Below are positions 8,843-62,178 of a stretch of 64,000 bases of DNA, one piece after another; the first letter of the stretch is position 1, and each line of letters starts with the position of its first letter. The stretch is taken from positions 902,913-966,912 of the forward strand of contig BPGL01000001.1 of assembly GCA_026003015.1 (NCBI GenBank), in the 5' to 3' direction. Source of the stretch: Actinomycetota bacterium (lineage in GTDB: Bacteria > Actinomycetota > UBA4738 > HRBIN12). The notes below the pieces were generated by a model. It searched no databases and had not been told where the DNA came from. It saw only the letters and a list, made by a program, of their open reading frames with translations. Made by a program: the position numbers and the translations under genes.

Positions 8843-10625
8843 CTAGGCGCGCTCCACGACGCAGGCCTGCCCGGTCGGGCAGCGGATCACACCGTGCTCG
8901 AAGGTCGCCGTCCCTCCGCCGGACGGCAGCGCCCGAACGCGGCTCGTCGGGAACCCCAGGGGGCCGGCCGGACCTCCGGCGTCGAGGTAGGTCGTGAGCA
9001 CCCGGCCCCACAGCGCGTGCACGCCGGCCGTGGGCTTGAAGAAGATCACCCCTCGCTCGAAGCGCACCCGACCGCAGCGCGTACACGAGATCCCGCGCTC
9101 GGCCCCGGCCAGGCTCGCGACCTTGGAGACCGGCAGTCCGAGCCGACCTTCCCCCAGGCCGACCGCCTCGTACTCGTCGAAGACCCCACCCCGCAGCCAC
9201 ACGGTGAGGTCGACGCGGTCGTTGTGGAAGATCCCTCCCCGCGAGAACAGCTGCTCCGAGCCGCCCGTGAGCGCTCGCTGGCGCGAGGTCGGCAGACCGG
9301 GCCGGCACCCGAGCGCGTCGTAGCGCTCGCGGATCGCGCCCGGGACGACGTTGCGGTTCACGTTGATCCACACGCGGACGTCCCGCAGGCCGAGCGCGGC
9401 CCGCAGACGACTACCCGAGATCGTGGCGCGTCCATCGGTGCCGCGCACCACGACGCTCACGATCCGGCCCGAGACGCCACGGCGCACGGGGCCGAACCCG
9501 ACGACCCGTCCGATCGCCCCCGTCGACGGGCGCAGCCGCGACGTCACCTGGTCGGCGCTCATCGTGACCTGCCAGTTCAGCCACGGGTTCCCGGTGGTCG
9601 ACTCCCCCGGATCGCAGACCCCACGCAGCCACGGGATGCGGTAGGCGTCGTTGCCTCCGTGCCACACGTCCTCGACGTTCTCCGTGTGCCCACCGTCGGA
9701 CGCCGCGTAGAACGCCTGCACGATCGCACCGCCGTAGACGACGACGCGCCCGCGCGTGTCGCGGACCGCGCCGACCCACCGGTCGCCGTCGGTGGAGCGC
9801 TCCTTCGACGCGCCGACGTAGACCTGGTCGCCGGCCCCGTCGGTCAGGTGGCAGTCGCAGCCGGGCCGCAGGCCCCCCTGTCGGCGGATCGTCGCCGCGG
9901 CGTAGGAACGCGCCGCGACGGCCTGCGCCCGCAGCACCTCCACCGGCCAGGAGGAGGGGACCTCGCCCAGGCCGTAGAGGTACTCCTCGAAGCCGAGCTG
10001 CACGACGCCGCGGATCCGGCACGCCGCGGTGCACCCGTACAGATCGAGGTCGATCACCCCCCGCGCGTAGGAGAAGCCGTGGCCCCAGATCTGGTCGGCC
10101 TCGGGGATGAACACCCTCGCGCCGTCCTGCTCGTAGGTGAGGAAGAGCCGGCGCGTCGTCCCGCCCCAGGTCCGCCCACCGACCAGGTTCCCGTCGCCGT
10201 CGAGCACGGCGAAGCGTCCGTCCTGCGCCCGAACGGTCCACGTCGCCCCCGCCGGGGATCGTGCCGACCGGCGTCCCGGCGTGCGGCTCGCCGACCCACA
10301 CGCCCACCGGGCCGCCGCGGGCTCCGAGTTGGAGGCGGGCGACGCCTGCGACGAGCTCCACCCGGATCGTCGAGGGCAGGTCGCCGCGCCGCGCGACGTC
10401 GGTTCCGCTGAAGAAGTGGGTGAGGATCCGCGCGTGCCCCCAACCCATGCGCGCCAGGCCGAGCGCGCCCCACTGCGACATCCCGATCCCGTGGCCGTAG
10501 CCCGAGCCGTAGAAGGTGAACGAGGACGGAGCCGCCGACGCGCCGGGGGCAACGGCCAGGACCGCGGCGGTGAGCGCCGCGATGGCGAACGCGATCCTGC
10601 TGGGTGGCCGCACGCTCGTCGTCAT
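8843..10625 (-). CDS. SpoIID/LytB-domain protein with C-terminal LGFP repeats, with an apparent +1/-1 frameshift near 10240-10262 (possible pseudogene or sequencing indel)
   Basis: The frame starting at 10625 encodes a signal peptide plus FTFYGSGYGHGIGMSQWGALGLARMGW. The frame ending at 8843 continues with ATWTVRAQDGRF...LYGLGEVPSSWPVEVLRAQAVAARSYA...YAASDGGHTEN (SpoIID core) and then GRLGLPVS / GPLGFPTS (LGFP repeats). The two frames meet inside a C5/G4 run. Confidence 0.7.
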
Positions 10626-23439: not shown

Positions 23440-23676
23440 GTCGACAGCCTACCGGGGCGCGTCGGCGACCCTGTGCGCGGCCGCGGGCGTGTGGCATGAT
23501 GCGCCTTCCGACCACCCCATGACCGTCGACCGCTGCTCGCCACGCTCGTCGGCCTCGCCGAGGCCGGCGCCGGCGCACGTCCCCGCGCGCCGCGGACCGG
23601 GCCAGGCAGGTCATCCGCGGTGGGCTCGGCGACGAACACCTCCCGGCAGACGAGCGGGGTCGGCGGCACGGAACGC

Positions 23677-43857: not shown

Positions 43858-45627
43858 CTAGGTGCGAGCCGCGACGGCGCGCTCGATCACGTCGAGGATC
43901 TCCTCTCGGACCAGCTCGTCGCGCTCCAGGAGGGCATCGCGCAGCGCGGTGTGCACGTCGGTGTTCTCCGCGAGGACGGCCCGGGCCCGCTCGCGCTGCG
44001 CGTCGAGGATGCGCTCGACGTGACGGCGGGCGGACTCGTCCGCGAGGACCTTCGCGACCAGGTTCGAGCGCCCGAGCCTCCCGTCCTGCACGGCCTCGAA
44101 GCTCACGAGCGAACCCGCCATCCCGAACGCGCCGACCATCCGGCACGCGAGCTCCGTCGCCGTCGCGAGGTCGGCGCCGGGACCGGTGCCGGTCTCGCCG
44201 AACCGGAGCTCCTCGGCCACGAGACCGCCCAACGCGATCGCGATCGAGGCCTCGAGCTCCGAACGCGTACGCGTGAAGCGCTCCTCCTCGTCGCTGTGCG
44301 CGAGGAGCCCGAGCGAGCCCCGGCGCTTGATGATGGACAGCACCTCGAGCCGTCGACCCTTGCCGAGCACGTAGGCGACCGTCGCGTGCCCGGCCTCGTG
44401 CGTGGCGATCGCGAGGCGTTCGTCGTCGGTGTAGGTGACCGGCTGCTTCGTGCCGACCTCCTCGGTCATCTTCGCCTCGATGACGTCGTCGAGGTTCATC
44501 TGCTTGCGTCCATCACGCAGGGCAACGAGCAGCGCCTCGTCGAAGAGGTGCTCGATCATCACCGGCGTGTAGCCGAACGTGTCGGCGGCGATCCGATCGC
44601 GCACGGCGTCCTCGTCGAGCTGCTCGTGGTGCGCCTTGCGCGCGAGGAAGAAGTCGATGAGGTCGCGCCGCTCCTGCTTCGTCGGCACGTCGAAGTAGAG
44701 GCGCCGATCGAACCGACCCGGGCGTAGCAGCGCGGGATCGAGCGCGTCGCCGCGGTTCGTCGCGGCGATGAGCAGGATGTTGTGGTAGGCGGGGCGCATC
44801 GCGCACAGCTGGCGGTTCGGCGGCAGGAAGCCGTTGAGCCAGGTGATCGCGCGCGCGCGCAGCCGATCGGCCAGGGGCGGCTGGTCGAACGACTGCATCT
44901 GGATCAGCAGCTCGTTCACCATGCTGCTCCCGCCTAGGTCGATGAACGGAGCACGGGCACGCCCGAGGTCGTCGGCCGCTTGGGCCGCGGCGGCTGCGAC
45001 GCCGCCGCGCGAGGCCCCGATCGCGTCGATCTCCTCGATGAAGCCGATCGCGCCCCCTTCCTTGCGCGCGGCCTTCCGGAGCGCCTTGAAGAACGACCGG
45101 ATCCGGAACGCCGTCATCCCCGACCACATCGACTGGAAGGCCGGGGCCGAGATGAACAGGAAAGGCACGCCGGCCTGCTTGGCCATCGCCTTGGCCAGGT
45201 AGGTCTTTCCGGTACCGGGCGGACCCTCGAACAGCACGCCGCGCCGCGGGGTGCCGCCGAGCTCCTCGCGGAACGTCGCGTACCCGAGGAACACGTCGAG
45301 GGTGCGCACGACCTCGTCGACCTGGTGATCCAGCCCTCGGATGTCGGTGAGACCTACCTCGACCTGCTCGGGGTAGACGGTGATGTGCGGCGAGCGCCCG
45401 TTGATCAGCGGCAGAGCCGCCATCAGGACGATCGCGATGAAGATGCCGATGACCGGCAGGAAGTAGTACCAGTCGGGCGGAAGGGTCAGCCGAAGACCCG
45501 TCGGATGGCGCCGCCAGAGCAGGTACAGGCCGAGATCGAAGACGGCGACGACGACGATCGCCTTCACGATCCGCCGCAGGCGCGTGCGCTCGCGCTGGCG
45601 GAACACGTCGGCGGAGCCCTCCCGGAC
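43858..45627 (-). CDS. FtsH-like membrane AAA+ ATPase / zinc metalloprotease (short periplasmic loop)
   Basis: Two TM helices, Walker A GPPGTGKTYLAK, SRH region, and an HEAGH zinc-binding motif. The start is uncertain (candidate GTG near 45627). The track ORF extends to 45978 and overlaps the divergent regulator. Confidence 0.75.
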   Translation of the reverse strand, partial: VREGSADVFRQRERTRLRRIVKAIVVVAVFDLGLYLLWRRHPTGLRLTLPPDWYYFLPVIGIFIAIVLMAALPLINGRSPHITVYPEQVEVGLTDIRGLDHQVDEVVRTLDVFLGYATFREELGGTPRRGVLFEGPPGTGKTYLAKAMAKQAGVPFLFISAPAFQSMWSGMTAFRIRSFFKALRKAARKEGGAIGFIEEIDAIGASRGGVAAAAAQAADDLGRARAPFIDLGGSSMVNELLIQMQSFDQPPLADRLRARAITWLNGFLPPNRQLCAMRPAYHNILLIAATNRGDALDPALLRPGRFDRRLYFDVPTKQERRDLIDFFLARKAHHEQLDEDAVRDRIAADTFGYTPVMIEHLFDEALLVALRDGRKQMNLDDVIEAKMTEEVGTKQPVTYTDDERLAIATHEAGHATVAYVLGKGRRLEVLSIIKRRGSLGLLAHSDEEERFTRTRSELEASIAIALGGLVAEELRFGETGTGPGADLATATELACRMVGAFGMAGSLVSFEAVQDGRLGRSNLVAKVLADESARRHVERILDAQRERARAVLAENTDVHTALRDALLERDELVREEILDVIERAVAART

Positions 45628-46198: not shown

Positions 46199-46632
46199 TC
46201 GGACCGAGCGCGCTCGACCACGTCGGCATCGCGGTCGAGGACCTCGAGGCCGCGGTCGCCCACTACCGGCGTGTCCTCGGGCTGGAGCCCGTGCACCGCG
46301 AGCGCGTGGAGGACCAGGGGGTCGAGGAGGTGCTCTTCGAGCTGGGCGGGTCCTACGTCCAGCTGCTCGGGGCGCTCGGGCCCGACACCCCGGTGGGTCG
46401 TTCGCTCGCCCGGCGCGGCCCCGGCGTGCACCACATCGCGATCCGCGTCGACGACATCGCGCAGGCGCTCCGGCGGCTGCGGACCGAGGGCGTGCGCCTC
46501 GTCGACGAGGCGCCCAGGCCGGGCTCACGCGACACCCTGATCGCGTTCGTCCACCCCTCCGCGATGGGCGGGGTCCTGCTCGAGCTCGTCCAGGAGCGCC
46601 CAGCGGGCGGCGCGGGCCCGTCCCGGGGCTAG
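46195..46632 (+). CDS. Methylmalonyl-CoA / ethylmalonyl-CoA epimerase (VOC / glyoxalase-fold)
   Basis: LDHVGIAVEDLEAAVAHYRRVLGL ... GVHHIAIRVDDI ... GVLLELVQ. The GTG start overlaps the upstream stop. Confidence 0.8.
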   Translation: MIGPSALDHVGIAVEDLEAAVAHYRRVLGLEPVHRERVEDQGVEEVLFELGGSYVQLLGALGPDTPVGRSLARRGPGVHHIAIRVDDIAQALRRLRTEGVRLVDEAPRPGSRDTLIAFVHPSAMGGVLLELVQERPAGGAGPSRG

Positions 46633-47870
46633 CTGAGGTCGCGCCGCCCGGGCTCCGACGCGTTCACCAGGCAGGCGACGTTGCCCTCGGGCAGCTTGCC
46701 GTCGCCCATGAGCTGGTGGGCGAGCGGGATCTCCTCGTAGCGGTAGGTGTGTCCGAGCGTCGTGCGGATGCGTCCCTCACGGACGAGGTCGTTGAAGGCG
46801 TAGGCCTGTTCGTCGTTCATGAGATGCGAGCCCTGGTAGCGCTTCTGCATGTACCAGAGGTACCGAACGTCGACCATCGTGTCGTACCCGCTCGTGCCCG
46901 CGCAGATCACGACCATGCCACCGCGGTCACACACGAAGATCGACGTGGGGATCGTGTCCTGACCGGGGTGCTCGAACACGATCCTGGGGCTCGTCTTCTC
47001 TCCGAGCGCATCCCAGACCGCCTTGCCGAACGCCTTCGCGCCGTCGAGCCACCCCTTCCAGTCGGGCGAGTCCCAGGCCGGGGGGACGCCCCAGTGGTCG
47101 AAGGCCCTGCGGTTCACGTACCCGACCGCGCCGAGCGACTTCGCGTACTCCCCCTTCTCGTCGCTCGACACCACGGCCACGGGCCGCCCGCCCGCGTCGG
47201 CCACGAGCTGTGTCGCCAGCGATCCGAGGCCACCGGCGCCTCCCCACACGAGGACGACGTCGCCCGGCTCCACGGTGTGCGGGGGCCAGCCGAACAGCAT
47301 CCGGTAGGCGGTCCCGCCGGTGAGGGTGGGGGCGGCCGCCTCCTCCCACGTGAGGTGCTCGGCCTTCGGCATGCACTGGTGGTCCTGGACCTTCGTGAAC
47401 TGCGCCATCGAGCCCCAACACGTGTCGTATCCCCACACGCGGAAGCTCGCGGCAAGCCCCGGGTCCTTGCCGGCCAACACCCAGGGATCGTCGGGGTTCC
47501 ACTGGCCCGGGTGCACGACGACGTGGTCCCCCACGGCGACGTTCGTGACCTCGGAGCCCACCGCCCACACGACGCCGGAGGCGTCCGAGCCGACGATGTG
47601 GAAGTCGGTCGGCTCACCCCAGCGGGCTTGGGTCTTCGTCACGTCCACCGGAACCCCGCGCGCGGCCCAGACGTTGTTGAAGTTCACCCCGGCCGCCATC
47701 ACGGCGACGAGGACGTCGCGGGGCCCAAGGTCGGGGACGTCGATCACCTCGTCGCGGATCGCGTCCTTCGGGTCGCCGTAGCGGTCCGGCCGCACGACCA
47801 TCGCGTGCATCCGAGCCGGCACCTCGCCGAGCGGCGGCAGCTCTCCGACCTCGTACAGGTCCTTGCCCAT
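46629..47870 (-). CDS. ccr: Crotonyl-CoA carboxylase/reductase
   Basis: MGKDLYEVGELPPLGEVPARMHAMVVRPDRYGDP ... WGYDTCWGSMAQFTKVQDHQCMPKAEHLTWEEAAAPTLTGGTAYRML matches Ccr (MDR superfamily) along its full length. My recollection of Streptomyces Ccr aligns position by position. Confidence 0.85.
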   Translation of the reverse strand: MGKDLYEVGELPPLGEVPARMHAMVVRPDRYGDPKDAIRDEVIDVPDLGPRDVLVAVMAAGVNFNNVWAARGVPVDVTKTQARWGEPTDFHIVGSDASGVVWAVGSEVTNVAVGDHVVVHPGQWNPDDPWVLAGKDPGLAASFRVWGYDTCWGSMAQFTKVQDHQCMPKAEHLTWEEAAAPTLTGGTAYRMLFGWPPHTVEPGDVVLVWGGAGGLGSLATQLVADAGGRPVAVVSSDEKGEYAKSLGAVGYVNRRAFDHWGVPPAWDSPDWKGWLDGAKAFGKAVWDALGEKTSPRIVFEHPGQDTIPTSIFVCDRGGMVVICAGTSGYDTMVDVRYLWYMQKRYQGSHLMNDEQAYAFNDLVREGRIRTTLGHTYRYEEIPLAHQLMGDGKLPEGNVACLVNASEPGRRDLS

Positions 47871-52655: not shown

Positions 52656-54236
52656 ATGCCCGAGGACGAGCCAGCCGAGCCGGACCGCAGCGTCGAGGAT
52701 CGCATCGAGGAGCTTCGGCGCCGCCGCGAGGAGGTCCTTGCGCCCGGCGGCCGAGAGGCGGCGGCCAAACAGCACGAGAAGGGCAAGCTCACCGCCCGCG
52801 AACGCCTCGAGATCCTGATGACAAGGGATCGTTCGTCGAGACCGACCCGTTCGCCGTCCACCGGGCGCACGACTTCGGGATGGACCGTCGCCGGCCGCCG
52901 GGCGACGGCGTCGTCACCGGGTTCGGCTCGATCGACGGGCGCAAGGTCTTCGTTCGCCAGTCAGGACTTCACCGTCTTCGGCGGCTCGCTGGGCGAGGTG
53001 ATCGCCCAGAAGGTCTGCAAGGTGATGGACCTGGCCATGCAGAGCCGGTGCCCCGTTCATCCGGCTCAACGACTCGGGCGGCGCGCGCATCCAGGAGGGC
53101 GCGGCCTCGCTCGCCGGTTACGGGCACATCTTCGAGCGCAACGTTCGTGCCAGCGGCGTCATCCCGCAGATCAGCGTGATCATGGGGCCGTGCGCGGGCG
53201 GGGCCGTCTACTCGCCCGCGATCACCGACTTCACGTTCATGGTCAAGGAGACCTCCCACATGTTCATCACGGGCCCGGACGTGATCCGGACCGTCACCGG
53301 GGAGGAGGTCACCTTCGAGGAGCTCGGCGGCGCGATGACCCACGCGGCACGGTCGGGGGTCGCGGCCTTCGTCGGCGAGGACGACGAGGACACCTTGCAG
53401 CGCGTGCGCTACCTGCTGTCGTTCCTGCCGTCGAACAACCTCGAGGACCCTCCGGCCTACGCGCCGACCGACGATCCCGATCGGATGGACGAACGGCTCA
53501 CCCACGTGGTCCCGGACCGACCGCAGGAGCCCTACGACATGCACGAGGTGATCCGCGCGGTCGTCGACGACGGCGAGTTCCTCGAGGTCTTCCCGTTCTG
53601 GGCGATGAACATCGTCGTGGGCTTCGCGCGCCTGGACGGCCGAACGGTCGGGGTCGTGGCGAACCAGCCGAAGGTCCTCGCCGGGACGCTCGACATCGAT
53701 GCGAGCGAGAAGGCGTCTCGGTTCATCCGGTTCTGCGACGCGTTCAACGTGCCCCTGCTCACCTTCGTCGACGTTCCCGGGTTCCTGCCGGGCACGCAGC
53801 AGGAGTACGGCGGGATCATCCGCCACGGCGCGAAGCTCCTGTACGCCTTCGCCGAGGCGACCGTTCCTCGGATGACCGTGATCACGCGCAAGGCGTACGG
53901 AGGAGCCTACGTGGTCATGAACTCCAAGCACCTGCGCGCCGACGTCGCCTACGCCTGGCCGACCGCCGAGATCGCGGTGATGGGCGCCGAGGGCGCCGTC
54001 AACATCGTGTTCCGCAAGGAGATCGAGCGTGCGGCCGATCCGGAAGCCAAGCGCCAGCAGCTCATCCGGCAGTACCGGGAGAAGTTCTCCACCCCCTACG
54101 CCGCCGCCGAACGCGGGTTCATCGACGACGTGATCGAGCCTGCGGAGACACGACCGCGGCTCGTGCAGGCCCTGCGGATGCTCTCGACCAAGCGCGAGGC
54201 GCTGCCGCGCGCAAGCACGGCAACATCCCCCTGTGA
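52656..54236 (+). CDS. pccB: Acyl-CoA (propionyl-CoA) carboxylase carboxyltransferase beta subunit, disrupted by four single-nucleotide frameshifts (pseudogene or sequencing indels)
   Basis: The protein is recoverable only by switching frames 0->2->0->1->0, at about 52816, about 52957, about 53052 (an extra C in a cccc run) and about 54208. The reconstruction reads ...[71 protein letters not shown]...[28 protein letters not shown]...[15 protein letters not shown]...[16 protein letters not shown]. The KHGNIPL ending, remembered from mycobacterial AccD5, is only in frame 0. Confidence 0.8.
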
Positions 54237-54505
54237 GGCGGGCCACGGTGGGTGACGATCGACGCTTCGAGCTCCCCGAAGGCCTGAGCGGGGCCGAGGA
54301 GCGCGCGATCGTGATGGCGCTCGAGCGCTACTTCGCGGAGGAGAGCCCCAAACCGAACCCCTGGGTGCTGCAGGGGCGCGTCGACGCCCTCGGCGCGGGG
54401 CGCCTCCAGGTCCGCCGCTACGCGCGGCAGCCCTGGCACCAGATCCGGGCACCGTTCGCGCGCCGCGGCGTTCCGCCGCTCGCCGGCCGCGGCGACGTGC
54501 GGTGA
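54233..54505 (+). CDS. Probable acyl-CoA carboxylase epsilon subunit (small accessory subunit)
   Basis: A 90-aa ORF with a GTGA overlap on the frame-0 pccB stop, at the typical position for AccE/PccE. Sequence similarity is weak. Confidence 0.45.
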
Positions 54506-54789
54506 GCGCGACCGAGCCCGAGGACGCCCGGCGGGCGGCGCTCGCGGCGTTCGAGGCCGAGGGGTGCGGCGCCCCGCGGACCTGGCGGAACGGGCCGGGC
54601 GACCGCTACGCCCGCCACGCCCATCCCTACCACAAGGTGCTCTTCTGCCTGGAGGGATCGATCGTGTTCCACACCGACGGCGGCGATATCGCGCTCGAGC
54701 CCGGAGGCCGACTCGACCTCCCCGCGGGTACGCCGCACGCAGCGACCGTCGGGCCCGACGGGTGCGTGTGCATCGAGGCGTCGCGGTGA
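54502..54789 (+). CDS. Cupin-domain protein (95 aa)
   Basis: HAHPYHKVLFCLEGSIVFHTDGGDIALEPGGRLDLPAGTPHAATVGPDGCVC contains the two-His cupin motifs. 4-nt overlaps with both neighbours. Confidence 0.6.
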   Translation: MSATEPEDARRAALAAFEAEGCGAPRTWRNGPGDRYARHAHPYHKVLFCLEGSIVFHTDGGDIALEPGGRLDLPAGTPHAATVGPDGCVCIEASR

Positions 54790-55901
54790 AGGTCGCGTTC
54801 CAGGTCGACCAGCTGTGGTTCGCCGCACCCGGCGGGATCGGCACCTACGTCGCCGAGCTCGCCCAGGCCCTCACGGCGCTCGCAGACGGGCCGAAGGTCG
54901 TGGGGTTCCGCGCACGGATCGACGGGACCCCCCATCGTCCGCCGGGCGTGCCGGTGGTGGAGCTTGCCGCGACGATCGGCCGCCTCTACCCCGCATGGGC
55001 CCTGCTCGGCCGTCCGCACCTGCCCGCCCCCCTCGACGCCTGCGACGTCGTGCACGCCACGAACCACGCGTCGATCCCTCCGGTCCGGCGCGGGCAGGCG
55101 CTCGTGGCCACGGTCCACGACCTCGCCTTCGACCGGTTCCCGACGCTGTTCCCCCCGAGCTGGCGGTGGCTGTACCGGGCGGGGGTACGGGCTGCGATCG
55201 CGCGCGCGCACCGACTGCTCGTCCCCAGCCGCTCGACCGCGCGCGACCTCGCCGACCGCGGCGCGGACCCCACGCGGATCGCGGTCACCCCCCTGGCACC
55301 CGCGTTGCCGACGGCCACGGGGGACCCGGGTCCCGTCCTGGAACGCCTCAAGATCCCCCGCCCCTACGTCGTGTGCCCCGCGACGATCGAACCCCGCAAG
55401 AACCAGGCGATCCTCGTTCGCGCCTTCCGCCAGGCGGCGGCGGAGCTCCCCCACGCCCTCGTGCTCGCCGGCCCGGTCGGATGGCGCACGGGCTCGCTGG
55501 AGGCCGAGCTCGCCCGCGGCGGTCCCGGCACGATCGTGCGCACCGGCGGGCTCAGCGCCGAGGACCTCGACGCCGTCTACCGGGGCGCGGACGCCGTGGC
55601 GTACCCCTCGCGCTACGAGGGCTTCGGTCTCGTGATCGTCGAGGCGATGGCCCGGGGGGTTCCGGTCGTGACCTCCACCACCCCGGCGTGCTCGGAGGTC
55701 GCGGGGGACGCGGCGCTCCTCGTCGACCCCGACGACGTCGGTGGGCTCGCCGACGCGCTCGTGCGCGCGTGCACCGACGCCGGGTTGCGCGCCGAGCTCG
55801 TGCGGCGGGGGCGGCGGCGCGTCGAAGGGCTCTCGTGGGCGGCGACGGCGCACGCTACCCTCCGCGCGTACCGGCAGGCCCTCGCGGAGGTGCGCGGATG
55901 A
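54786..55901 (+). CDS. Family 4 glycosyltransferase (GT-B fold)
   Basis: The GTG at 54786 overlaps the cupin stop. EX7E region RYEGFGLVIVEAMARGVPVVTSTTPACSEV. Confidence 0.8.
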   Translation: MKVAFQVDQLWFAAPGGIGTYVAELAQALTALADGPKVVGFRARIDGTPHRPPGVPVVELAATIGRLYPAWALLGRPHLPAPLDACDVVHATNHASIPPVRRGQALVATVHDLAFDRFPTLFPPSWRWLYRAGVRAAIARAHRLLVPSRSTARDLADRGADPTRIAVTPLAPALPTATGDPGPVLERLKIPRPYVVCPATIEPRKNQAILVRAFRQAAAELPHALVLAGPVGWRTGSLEAELARGGPGTIVRTGGLSAEDLDAVYRGADAVAYPSRYEGFGLVIVEAMARGVPVVTSTTPACSEVAGDAALLVDPDDVGGLADALVRACTDAGLRAELVRRGRRRVEGLSWAATAHATLRAYRQALAEVRG

Positions 55902-56911
55902 AGGTCTCCCTCGTCGCGACGGTGCTGGACGCCCGCGAACGCGTCGGGCCGTTCCTCACCTCGATCGCGGCCCAGACCCGGCCCCCCGACGAGATCGTGA
56001 TCGTCGACGGGGGCTCGACCGACGGCACGCTGGACGTCGTGCGCGCCGCCCGCGGCGTCGTCGTTCTCGAGGAGCCGGGGGCGTCGATCGCCCGAGGTCG
56101 CAACCTCGCGATCGCGCGCTCGACCCACGAGGTGATCGCCGTCGCCGACGCCGACTGCCTCTACGAGCCGGGGTGGCTCGCCGCCCTCATGCGGACGATC
56201 GAGGAGGGCGCCGACGTCGCGATGGGGTGGTACGAGCCCATCGTCGAGGGGCTCTGGGACGCCTGCCTCGCGTCGGTGAACCTGCCGCTCACCCCGGCGG
56301 AGATCGACCCCGACCGCTTCATGCCGAGCGCCCGGTCGGTGGCGTTCCGACGGGAGGCGATCGAGGCCGTCGGTGGCTACCCGGAGTGGCTCCCTATCGG
56401 GGAGGACATGTGGGTGAACCACCGGTGGCGCGAGCGCGGCCTCGACCTGCGCTTCGCGCCCGACGCCGTGGCGCGCTGGCCGCTGCGGCCGGATCCCGCG
56501 GCGGTGTGGCGCCAGTACCTGCGCTACGCGCGGGGGGACGCCCACGCGGGGATGTACCCCGAGCGTCACGCGCTCCGGGTGGCGGTCTACGGCGGGCTCG
56601 CGGCCGCGCTCGTGAGCCGACGCCGCTGGCCGCTCGCGCTCGCCGCCCTCGGCGGGTTCGCGTACGCCCGCACACCGATCCGACGGGCGTGGAGCCGTCT
56701 CGGCGCCCCCGCAGAGCGGGCAGCCGCCGCGGTCCTCGTGCCGACGCTCATGGCCTGGATCGACCTCGCGAAGCTCGCCGGCTACGGGATCGGGCTCGTG
56801 GACCGACTGCGCGGCCGCGCCGGCCCTCAGTACGCGAAGAAGCCCCGGCCGCTCTTGCGACCGAGGCGTCCGAGCTCGACCATGCGACGAAGGAGCGGCG
56901 GCGGCGCGTAG
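55898..56911 (+). CDS. Family 2 glycosyltransferase
   Basis: ATGA overlap with the upstream gene. IVIVDGGSTDGT ... AVADADCLYEPGWL GT-A motifs. The C-terminal tail overlaps convergent hbd by ~85 nt, so the true stop may be earlier. Confidence 0.7.
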   Translation: MKVSLVATVLDARERVGPFLTSIAAQTRPPDEIVIVDGGSTDGTLDVVRAARGVVVLEEPGASIARGRNLAIARSTHEVIAVADADCLYEPGWLAALMRTIEEGADVAMGWYEPIVEGLWDACLASVNLPLTPAEIDPDRFMPSARSVAFRREAIEAVGGYPEWLPIGEDMWVNHRWRERGLDLRFAPDAVARWPLRPDPAAVWRQYLRYARGDAHAGMYPERHALRVAVYGGLAAALVSRRRWPLALAALGGFAYARTPIRRAWSRLGAPAERAAAAVLVPTLMAWIDLAKLAGYGIGLVDRLRGRAGPQYAKKPRPLLRPRRPSSTMRRRSGGGA

Positions 56912-59655: not shown

Positions 59656-60231
59656 GTGCCGCGACCGCTCGCACTGCTCGCCCACGCGGGCGCGGCCGAC
59701 GAGTCGCTCGCGATGGCCATGGTCGTCGCGAGCCTGTGGATCGCCTGGGTGGGATGGTCGCGGCTGCGCGGGACCGGGTTCCCGCGTATTCCTCGGTGGA
59801 GCGCGGCCGCGCTGCTGGGCAGCGCGGCCGCGCTCCTCGTGGCGTCCGCGATCGTGCCGCGCGCCGTGCTCGGGCCCTCCACCCCCTCCCCCGCGGCCGG
59901 CCCCCGGCCGAGCTCGACCGCGACCCTGCGCGTCGTGGAGCCCGCGCCCGGTACGCTCGTTCGCGGCGATCGCCTCCGGGTCGTGCTCGCCCTCGAGGGC
60001 GGCCGGATCGTCGAGTCGGCCTCGACGGAGCTGCGGCCCGACACCGGGCACGTCCACGTCGTCGTCGACGGACGGATGGTCTCGATGACCTACGGAACCC
60101 TGCAGATCGTGGACCTCTCGGGCCTCACGCCGGGTCGCCACGAGCTCGAGGCCGAGTTCGTCGCCGCCGACCACGCACCCTTCGCCCCCCGCGTGCTCGC
60201 CCGGACCTGGTTCCGGTTGGAGGAAGGGTGA
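59656..60231 (+). CDS. Membrane/secreted protein with a conserved His-rich domain (GHVHVVVDG ... ADHAPF), tentatively DUF4399-like; paralog of 62168..62588
   Basis: N-terminal hydrophobic segments, then a domain sharing RVVEP-G-V-GD-L-V-L...RPD-GH-HV--D-----SM...G-H-L--EFVA-DHAPF-PRV with the downstream paralog. The GTG start follows the upstream TAG. Confidence 0.45.
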   Translation: MPRPLALLAHAGAADESLAMAMVVASLWIAWVGWSRLRGTGFPRIPRWSAAALLGSAAALLVASAIVPRAVLGPSTPSPAAGPRPSSTATLRVVEPAPGTLVRGDRLRVVLALEGGRIVESASTELRPDTGHVHVVVDGRMVSMTYGTLQIVDLSGLTPGRHELEAEFVAADHAPFAPRVLARTWFRLEEG

Positions 60232-62178
60232 ACGTGCGCCGCGCCCTTGGGGTCGTGCTCCCCGTGGCGGCGCTCGCCGTCCTCGTCCTCGCGCGGCCGG
60301 CCCTCGCCCACGCGGGGTTCCGCTCCTCCGATCCCGCCGACGGCGCGAGGCTCGAGCGGTCTCCAACGACGATCACCCTCACGTTCACCGAGGCCGTGGA
60401 CCCGAGCATCTCCACCGTCCGCCTCCTCGACGCCGCCGGCCGCGCCGTTGCGACGGGGTCGCCGGAGCAGCCGACGGCCGAGGTCCTCCGCCTGCCGCTG
60501 CCCGAGCCGCTGGCCCGCGGCAGCTACACCGTGACCTGGCTCGTCGTCTCTGCGGTCGATGGCCACGTGACCTCCGGGGCGATCGCGTTCGGCGTCGGTG
60601 TCGAGCCCGGTGAGGCCGCCGCGACCGCGACCCCCCCCGGCCCCGTCAACCGCGTCGCCCCTCGGGATCGGCGCGAGAACGCTCCTGCTCGTCGGCGTCG
60701 CCCTGTTGCTCGGGCTCGGCGCCGTCGGCGCACACGTCCTCGAGACGACGCCGGCCTCCCTTCGCCCCCTCGCCGTCGCCGCCGGGCTCGCGACGTTCGG
60801 CGGCGCGGCCCTCCTCGTCGCGGCCGAGGTCGCCCTGCTCGACCGGCCCGCCGTGGCCGTGTTGGCGTCGGAGCCCGGCGAGCGCCTCCTCCGCCTGCTG
60901 ATCGGCGCCGGCCTGGCCGCGGCGGTGGCCGTCGTCGCCGCGGCCAGGCCCCGGCGCGCCACGCTCACCGCGGCCGGCGCCGCCGGCGCGGTCGTCGCCG
61001 TCCTGCGCGCGGGCGCGGGCCACGCCGCCCCCGCGCCGGTGGACCAGGCGCTGCAGGCGGCGCACATCCTGGCGGTCGGCGGCTGGATCGGCGGGCTGGC
61101 CGTCCTGCTCGTGGCGTTGCGCGCCGGCGTGCCCGATCCGGTCCGAACGACCCGCCGGTTCTCGGCGACGGCCCTCGTCGCGGCGGCCGTCGTCGTGCTC
61201 ACCGGGACGCTGCGCGCCTGGTCGGAGACCGGCGGCCCCGCCGCGCTCGCCGAGACCGCGACCACGGCCTACGGACGCCTGCTCGGCCTGAAGGTCGTCG
61301 CCGCGCTGGCCCTGATCGCCCTGGGGGCGCGCAACCGTCGTCGGTCGCTCCCGGCCCTGGCCGCCGGCGACCCCGCGCCCCTCCGCCGCGTCGGGACGGC
61401 CGAGCTCTTGGTCGCCCTCGGCGTCTTCGCGCTCACCGGAGCCCTCACGTCGGTCCCCCCTCGTCCCACCGACGCGGTGCCCGTGCGGCCCCCCGCGATC
61501 CGCGCGGAGGGCCTGGACTTCGCCACCACGGTCCGAGCCTCGCTCAGCGTCACCCCGGGGCTGCCCGGCTCCAACGTCTTCGCGCTCGAGCTCATCGACC
61601 CCGACCGCGGGGACCCCGTGAACGCCGACGAGGTGTCGCTCACGCTCGAGCCGGTCGCCGGCGGGGTTCCGGCCCAGCGGGTCGAGCTGCGCCCGTCGGG
61701 GACGGCCTGGCGTGCCGAGAGCTCGGCCCTGGCGATCGCCGGCACGTGGCGGGCGACCGTTCGGGTCGTGCGGGGGTCCCAGGCGGTCGAGGTGCCGCTC
61801 GTCGTCACGACCCGCGTCGACGGCGCGCGCTCGAGCGTCGTCGAGGCCCCCGGGCAGCTGGCGATCACGACGATCGCCTACCGCGACGGCACATCCGCTC
61901 AGCTCTACCTGGACCCGGGCGATCCCGGCCCGAACCAGCTGCACGCCACCGTGTTCGACGCCGCCGGCGAGGAGCTCCAGATCCTCCACCCCACCCTCGT
62001 CGTCGTCGCCCCGGACGGCTCCGCAGCGCGGGCGGATCTCCTACGCTTCGGGCCGGGGCACGTCGTGGCGGAGCTCGACCTGGAGCCGGGGATGTGGGTG
62101 TTCGACCTCACCGGATCGACGCCGGGGGGCGGATCGGTGCAGGCGACCCTGCGCGCGCGAGTGGAGCCCGCGCCGTGA
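60228..62178 (+). CDS. CopC-CopD fusion copper transport protein with a C-terminal YtkA/Ig-like domain (YcnJ-like), with a frameshift in a C8 homopolymer (60631-60638)
   Basis: CopC domain in frame 0: signal peptide then AHAGFRSSDPADGARLERSPTTITLTFTEAVD...SYTVTWLVVSAVDGHVTSGAIAFGV. The CopD TM domain and C-terminal beta domains are in frame +1, starting at 60598. The junction is at cccccccc. Confidence 0.75.

Follow-up and report, generated by a model that had tools for sequence, protein, structure and literature searches.

Described counterparts of the gene considered here include the carboxyltransferase PccB of Streptomyces coelicolor (PDB 1XNV, 1XNY and the 3IAV series) and AccD5 of Mycobacterium tuberculosis (PDB 2A7S), both of which resemble the repaired protein in having a Carboxyl_trans domain and the sequence KHGNIPL. 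The gene itself (pccB) is located in a stretch of 64,000 nucleotides from an actinobacterial contig (BPGL01000001.1), referred to here as the window, and differs from both counterparts in that it is interrupted four times; it specifies Val rather than Asp at the position equivalent to residue 422 of PccB. False frameshifts induced by indels have been described for genome and metagenome assemblies made from PacBio and Nanopore reads. Genuine pseudogenes with multiple frameshifts are likewise known as products of reductive evolution, for example in Mycobacterium leprae.

The pccB lesions are like the false frameshifts of long-read assemblies in that they involve single bases, break an ORF, occur in one assembly only and are gone in other assemblies of the organism. 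A likeness to the homopolymer errors of long reads is also found in the same window, where a copCD run has eight C residues against seven in another contig (see below); the pccB indels, however, are situated outside long homopolymers and are accompanied by a burst of substitutions, and the patch is suggestive of a single poor read, or of a consensus drawn from mixed sources, rather than of the systematic errors made at homopolymers. With pseudogenes of the M. leprae type the gene shares a recognisable full length and several disruptions of the frame, but it is unlike them in having no population support, in the clustering of its lesions within 246 nt, in its identical flanks and in the absence of decay from 85% of its length. 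Judged from the sequence comparisons described here, the frameshifts and clustered substitutions of pccB are probably an artefact of assembly or consensus, and the AccD5/PccB-type gene of the organism, an uncultured high-G+C actinobacterium, is probably normal and functional; the frameshift cluster is most likely not a biological feature. The choice set out in the first-pass annotation of this locus, between a pseudogene and sequencing indel errors, was the right one and had been left unmade; the evidence now favours errors.

Table 1. Positions of the features discussed, in window coordinates.
Feature	Position	Strand	Observation
AccD5/PccB-type acyl-CoA carboxylase carboxyltransferase (beta) gene, pccB	52656..54236	+	Four 1-nt indels in the window; intact in same-species contigs (526 aa)
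J1, G missing, ATGGAC > ATGAC	52820 (52819..52821)	+	Frame 0 to frame 2
J2, extra T, TTCGTCGCC > TTCGTTCGCC	52953/4	+	Frame 2 to frame 0
J3, extra G, CAGACCGG > CAGAGCCGG	53044	+	Frame 0 to frame 1
J4, G missing, CCGGCG > CCGCG	54206/7	+	Frame 1 to frame 0; repair restores an 11-residue stretch
Six clustered private substitutions	52910, 52918, 52989, 53003, 53063, 53065 (52910..53065)	+	From same-species alignment
Crotonyl-CoA carboxylase/reductase (Ccr) gene, intact	46629..47870	-	TIGR01751, 523.6 bits against a cut-off of 378.55
Small ORF downstream of pccB	54233..54505	+	90 aa from GTG at 54233, overlapping the pccB stop
Cupin_2 gene, intact	54502..54789	+	
GT4 glycosyltransferase gene, intact	54786..55901	+	
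GT2 glycosyltransferase gene, intact	55898..56911	+	
copC-copD fusion gene, split	60228..62178	+	Frameshift at C8 run, 60631-60638
SpoIID/LytB- and LGFP-domain gene, split	8843..10625	-	G5 run (plus-strand C5, 10246-10250)

In six-frame translation, the carboxyltransferase reading runs in frame 0 from 52656 to 52820, in frame 2 to 52953, in frame 0 to 53043, in frame 1 from 53045 to 54206 and finally again in frame 0 to the TGA at 54234-54236, where it ends in KHGNIPL. A Viterbi frame scan that uses codon-position base composition and takes no homology input places the switches at 52819/20, 52953/54, 53056/57 and 54220; within the window, the pccB reading frame is not single and uninterrupted but switches four times. 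The indels themselves (J1 to J4) were positioned by alignment to 12 orthologues from other species (84-85% nucleotide identity) and at least 10 same-species contigs. Together with the translation and the frame scan, these alignments bear out the four single-base frameshifts reported in the first-pass annotation, along with its statements that each segment is PccB-like and that KHGNIPL lies in frame 0. The comparison with related orthologues that it had proposed as a check found the 12 genes from other species uninterrupted at all four sites. Its assignment of the third event to an extra C in a CCCC run at about 53052 did not hold: a repair at that run restores the frame but yields SRCP in place of the QTGAP found in all relatives, and alignment to contigs of the species identifies the extra base as a G at 53044. 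In shorter context, J3 converts CAGACC to CAGAGCC, and its repair restores the conserved sequence QTGAPFI; J2 converts CGTCGCC to CGTTCGCC. In two of the indels a GG pair has lost one of its bases; of the others, J2 turns a T into TT and J3 places a G between A and C. The successive shifts are -1, +1, +1 and -1, and because their net is zero the start and stop of pccB fall in one frame.

Four single-base repairs produce a 526-aa protein with a complete Pfam Carboxyl_trans domain (PF01039, profile positions 1-493 of 493, 688 bits). Residues 2-526 of this protein correspond to residues 2-530 of S. coelicolor PccB (E ~1e-219) and residues 15-526 align with M. tuberculosis AccD5 (E ~1e-193); neither alignment contains a gap at any junction, and the protein is colinear from end to end with the solved structures. 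Without repair, the frame-0 ORF, likewise of 526 aa, has a domain match confined to residues 38-135 (profile positions 1-96), and a frame-1 ORF of 359 aa matches profile positions 137-486. That frame 0 remains open across the 1.16-kb out-of-frame stretch (385 codons) is not remarkable, since an open frame is seen in about 25% of the equivalent stretches of this DNA, which has 74% G+C.

The best NCBIfam model for the repaired protein is TIGR01117 (mmdA subfamily), with a score of 852.9 that falls below the cut-off of 998.8. Residue 420 (at about 53913-53915, within the motif GGAYVVM), which aligns with position 422 of S. coelicolor PccB, is Val, and an equivalent of the Asp of that enzyme is absent from the repaired protein. 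We take Asp422 to be the residue reported to set the propionyl-CoA preference of S. coelicolor PccB. Given Val at this position, we use 'PccB' as a family label that carries no substrate assignment. The repaired protein is a member of the acyl-CoA carboxylase carboxyltransferase family for which a propionyl-specific label is unsupported, and propionyl specificity may be absent from the encoded enzyme. Two further observations were made in the course of the database searches. The best PDB matches to the repaired protein are chains with V or I at PccB position 422. The top-scoring database match is a 761-aa carboxyltransferase from Solirubrobacterales with an internal duplication of about 235 residues, in which a stretch starting ASEDEESCLEDVRYLLGFLPSNN is present twice; the duplication in this record looks like an assembly artefact.

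Same-species contigs, gathered by exact-protein look-ups with neighbouring genes, are 99.5-100% identical to the window. They come from four JGI metagenomes and at least nine SRA runs (at least 13 other samples). The intact allele is carried by every distinct contig that covers the site in question (10 of 10 at J1, 10 of 10 at J2, 9 of 9 at J3 and 13 of 13 at J4), and the indel alleles of the window are found in none of these 9-13 contigs per site. Three contigs (L087, L088 and L090) span the whole of pccB and encode an identical, uninterrupted 526-aa Carboxyl_trans protein, and precomputed matches of the same-species product are to PF01039 and PF03255. Over the 39.2 kb of the window that is covered by contigs, indel differences are confined to pccB (four), copCD (one) and the SpoIID-like gene (one). 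Another contig (L093) has no differences from the window over the 3764 nt directly upstream of the private cluster. The earlier suggestion that loss of PccB beside Ccr would have metabolic consequences is not supported, as pccB is intact in all the other members of the species that were sampled.

In many metagenome samples, contigs have recurrent end points inside pccB, at 53094/5, 53811 and 53949-53955. Such ends are expected of a very conserved core that has k-mers in common with co-occurring relatives. The core of pccB is an assembly break point in the sampled communities, and the locus is evidently a difficult one to assemble. The private patch is positioned just upstream of the first break point (53094/5). 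Exact-protein look-ups with the 526-aa frame-0 ORF and with the 359-aa and 357-aa fragments returned no match. A scan of a genome contig collection retrieved only other species, at no more than 88% amino-acid identity. Two scans of a metagenome contig collection, with patterns that accept both alleles, gave no match to either, the intact allele included; since the first pattern does match the JGI contigs L087-L090, this collection does not contain the species, and the negative scans are uninformative.

The indels do not stand by themselves. A substitution was scored as private to the window if all covering contigs disagree with the window at a depth of at least three, and by this measure pccB has 7 private substitutions, compared with 3 over the remaining 19.3 kb (Poisson P ~1e-8). 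Five of the seven are nonsynonymous (I86V, M112L, M116I, Q136R and I137L); the one that falls outside the cluster, at 53700, is synonymous. J1 to J3 and the six clustered substitutions all lie inside 52820-53065 (246 nt), so that 9 of the 11 private events occupy one 246-nt stretch of a 1581-nt gene (P ~2e-6 per window). These comparisons show that the pccB indels are private, that private substitutions cluster with them and that the ORF is intact in the rest of the species.

Decay across the gene as a whole was not observed. Among 277 columns that are invariant in 119 homologues, the repaired protein is changed at a single one, by I137L, which is itself a clustered change; constraint is not relaxed across the whole of pccB, the remaining 85% of which is without decay. 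Neutral decay would distribute changes over the 1.58 kb and produce comparable synonymous divergence in the flanks, and neither is seen. Of the six clustered substitutions, four replace an A by G or C, and changes from G/C to A/T are absent. Spontaneous mutation is biased from G/C to A/T, and the clustered spectrum runs against this bias. The three private substitutions outside pccB are an adjacent double at 45414-45415 and one at 46236, where all eight covering same-species contigs differ from the window; these, too, may be minor errors of the consensus, or else variants private to the window.

The probable source of the sequence bears on how an error of this kind could arise. Over 10,688 nt, one contig (L097) matches the window at 100.000% identity, and another (L081) is identical to it over 7,804 nt except for a C7/C8 run. 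Both are k-mer contigs built from the run DRR290133, and contigs from all other samples are 0.1-0.5% different. This pattern of identity suggests that the window was derived from the DRR290133 data set. DRR290133 consists of PacBio Sequel II HiFi reads (>Q20) from Katase hot-spring sediment, which were assembled by their authors with metaFlye 2.8.3 (PMC9671151, PMC11646566, PMC10928208, bioRxiv 10.1101/2025.08.20.671380). Actinobacterial MAGs from this sample (KatS3mg009, 010, 013 and 014) have a G+C content of 72.9-74.8% and a coverage of 3.2-7.2x, with the exception of the Gaiellales MAG KatS3mg012 (G+C 71.1%, 43x coverage; MAG table of that study). The G+C content of the window is 74.0%. 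For the interval 46.6-56.2 kb, look-ups with Ccr, the PD-(D/E)XK gene product and GT4 yielded no DRR290133 contig containing any of them as a complete and exact copy, and none of the DRR290133 contigs that were returned covers pccB; this gap fits thin or discordant read support near pccB.

From these data we infer the sequencing technology and the local coverage, and hence the mechanism of the error. The source contig would belong to a low-coverage long-read (PacBio HiFi) metagenome assembly in which the region of about 52.8-54.2 kb was supported by a single read or a handful of reads, or by a mixture of reads, and a burst of errors there would have passed uncorrected into the consensus. We favour an artefact because the indels are private to one assembly, with the intact allele in near-identical sequences, because the burst is local and without decay elsewhere, because the substitution spectrum is biased from AT to GC, and because the same assembly has a second private indel (copCD, C8 vs C7); the difficulty of assembling pccB and the probable origin of the window in DRR290133 also count in favour.

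Some features of the patch count against an artefact. HiFi errors are usually homopolymer indels; each of J1 to J4 falls outside any homopolymer of at least three bases, and for a read of Q20 or better the six substitutions within 156 nt are a high number. The G5 allele of the SpoIID-like gene is also present in a DRR290133 k-mer contig (see below), and real frameshift alleles may accordingly exist in the population. In addition, the six clustered alleles include three (GTC at codon 86, ACC at codon 88 and Leu at 112) that other species commonly carry, and random error is not expected to favour such states.

These three alleles would be accounted for by a particular sub-type of artefact, namely a chimeric consensus in which, during assembly or polishing, the conserved core would have been built from a mixture of reads belonging to co-occurring strains or to related species, generating a mosaic with spurious indels. 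The breaking of short-read contigs from many samples inside pccB, as occurs with k-mers common to relatives, is consistent with such mixing. Two other clustered alleles, ATC at codon 116 and CGG at codon 136, are found in 0 of 68 orthologues, and no donor sequence was found, a point on which the metagenome contig scans are uninformative. We therefore regard chimerism as possible, if somewhat doubtful, as the form that the artefact took.

A biological origin would require that pccB is a real, very recent and strain-private pseudogene, in which the four indels and seven substitutions possibly arose in one clustered event such as an error-prone repair patch. The differences are indeed present in the sequence as given, nonsynonymous changes make up five of the seven substitutions, as expected without selection, and the frameshift allele of the SpoIID-like gene is common to the window and the DRR290133 k-mer contig, unlike in another sample. 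However, the four pccB alleles appear in no other same-species contig and are not reproduced in independent sequence of the organism, the events are clustered rather than spread across the gene, the substitutions are biased from AT to GC, and outside the patch no invariant column is departed from. The flanks, moreover, match those of other samples for kilobases (L093 shows 0 differences over 3764 nt), and the time since divergence would thus have been too short for 11 neutral changes to build up in 1.58 kb. We consider a pseudogene unlikely on these grounds. Were the loss real, the burst of three indels and six substitutions in 246 nt, with two outlying events, would be the footprint of error-prone repair. 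The corresponding scenario, that a localised burst of mutation has very recently deprived one hot-spring strain of its AccD5/PccB-type carboxyltransferase, in a genome that retains Ccr, seems to us quite improbable; it would constitute a modest example of strain-level gene loss via clustered mutation. Programmed ribosomal frameshifting or other recoding that yields a full-length protein from the sequence as written has as its sole support the zero net shift, which puts start and stop in the same frame, and we reject it as having virtually no likelihood because the shift sites are not conserved (at all four, the reading is uninterrupted in 12 of 12 orthologues and in every same-species contig) and four separate shifts, two in each direction, would be required.

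If the pccB frameshifts are a consensus error, as is probable, then a face-value reading of the assembly would score the organism as lacking a propionyl/acyl-CoA carboxylase beside Ccr and so create a false metabolic gap, a matter of annotation hygiene. Additionally, with indels that cancel and a wrong frame that is open, gene prediction can yield an ORF that begins and stops in the right places and has the right length of 526 aa, although about 80% of it (residues 56-100 and 131-517) is junk sequence. Because length, start and stop are all correct, quality control based on length is blind to such a product, and it could enter protein databases. On this reading, local bursts of error can persist in low-coverage HiFi metagenome contigs.

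The crotonyl-CoA carboxylase/reductase noted nearby in the first-pass annotation was confirmed by a TIGR01751 match above the cut-off (Table 1). No alpha subunit (biotin-carboxylase/BCCP) is present among the genes annotated over 36.6-64 kb. Downstream of pccB, a translationally coupled set of accE-like, cupin and glycosyltransferase genes had been described, and the coupling of the cupin, GT4 and GT2 genes is upheld by 4-nt overlaps of each with the preceding gene (54502/54505, 54786/54789 and 55898/55901). The accE-like identity is not, as the small ORF at 54233-54505 has no Pfam or NCBIfam family match; 'AccE-like' is for this reason a label of position only. On other contigs, this ORF is called from 54248 and encodes 85 aa.

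Two other genes in the window are split by a frameshift, both at homopolymers. The C8 run in the copC-copD fusion gene is the longest homopolymer of the window; the DRR290133 contig L081 has C7 at this site and encodes a 649-aa CopC+CopD product, with no other difference in 7804 nt, and the fused ORF is also present in at least seven related species. In the SpoIID/LytB- and LGFP-domain gene, the DRR290133 contig L097 has the same G5 allele as the window, and a contig from SRR35626342 (L098) has G4 and an intact 593-aa SpoIID/LytB-LGFP product. The G5 allele is either a real polymorphism in homopolymer length or an error common to both sequences via the same reads. A look-up with the 344-aa neighbour of this gene gave no match.

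No further frameshifts were detected in the window by the frame scan, nor did alignment to relatives reveal any in the intervals 39.7-48 kb and 51-57.7 kb. A tblastn scan with the stop-to-stop ORFs of relatives was noisy, with many singleton signals that stem from out-of-frame ORFs and from apparent frame changes in the ORFs of the relatives themselves (L056 and L026); high support was obtained at the four pccB junctions only (up to 50 queries). In the two assemblies just named (L056, MFD05176.bin.1.125; L026, MFD00392.bin.2.365), ORFs switch frame relative to the window inside several single genes, for example at window positions 43.2, 47.1 and 56.3-56.6 kb, and these assemblies of related species may contain frameshifts of their own. 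An Rfam search of the window identified 0 RNA families. A candidate frameshift near 23587 is more likely an intergenic or N-terminal region of an LCP-family gene. Another, flagged by the frame scan at 1540-2443, was set aside in favour of two minus-strand ORFs: a Lys/Arg-rich repeat protein and a WhiB-like ORF. The former, at about 1640-1990, is a tandem-repeat protein rich in Lys, Arg, Thr and Ala, with units such as KKTTARKSTAKKTTARKPARR and a 75-nt period in 2.9 copies. The adjoining WhiB-like ORF, at about 2020-2200, has the C-terminus ...CSECPVRIECLNYAL...GVWGG...
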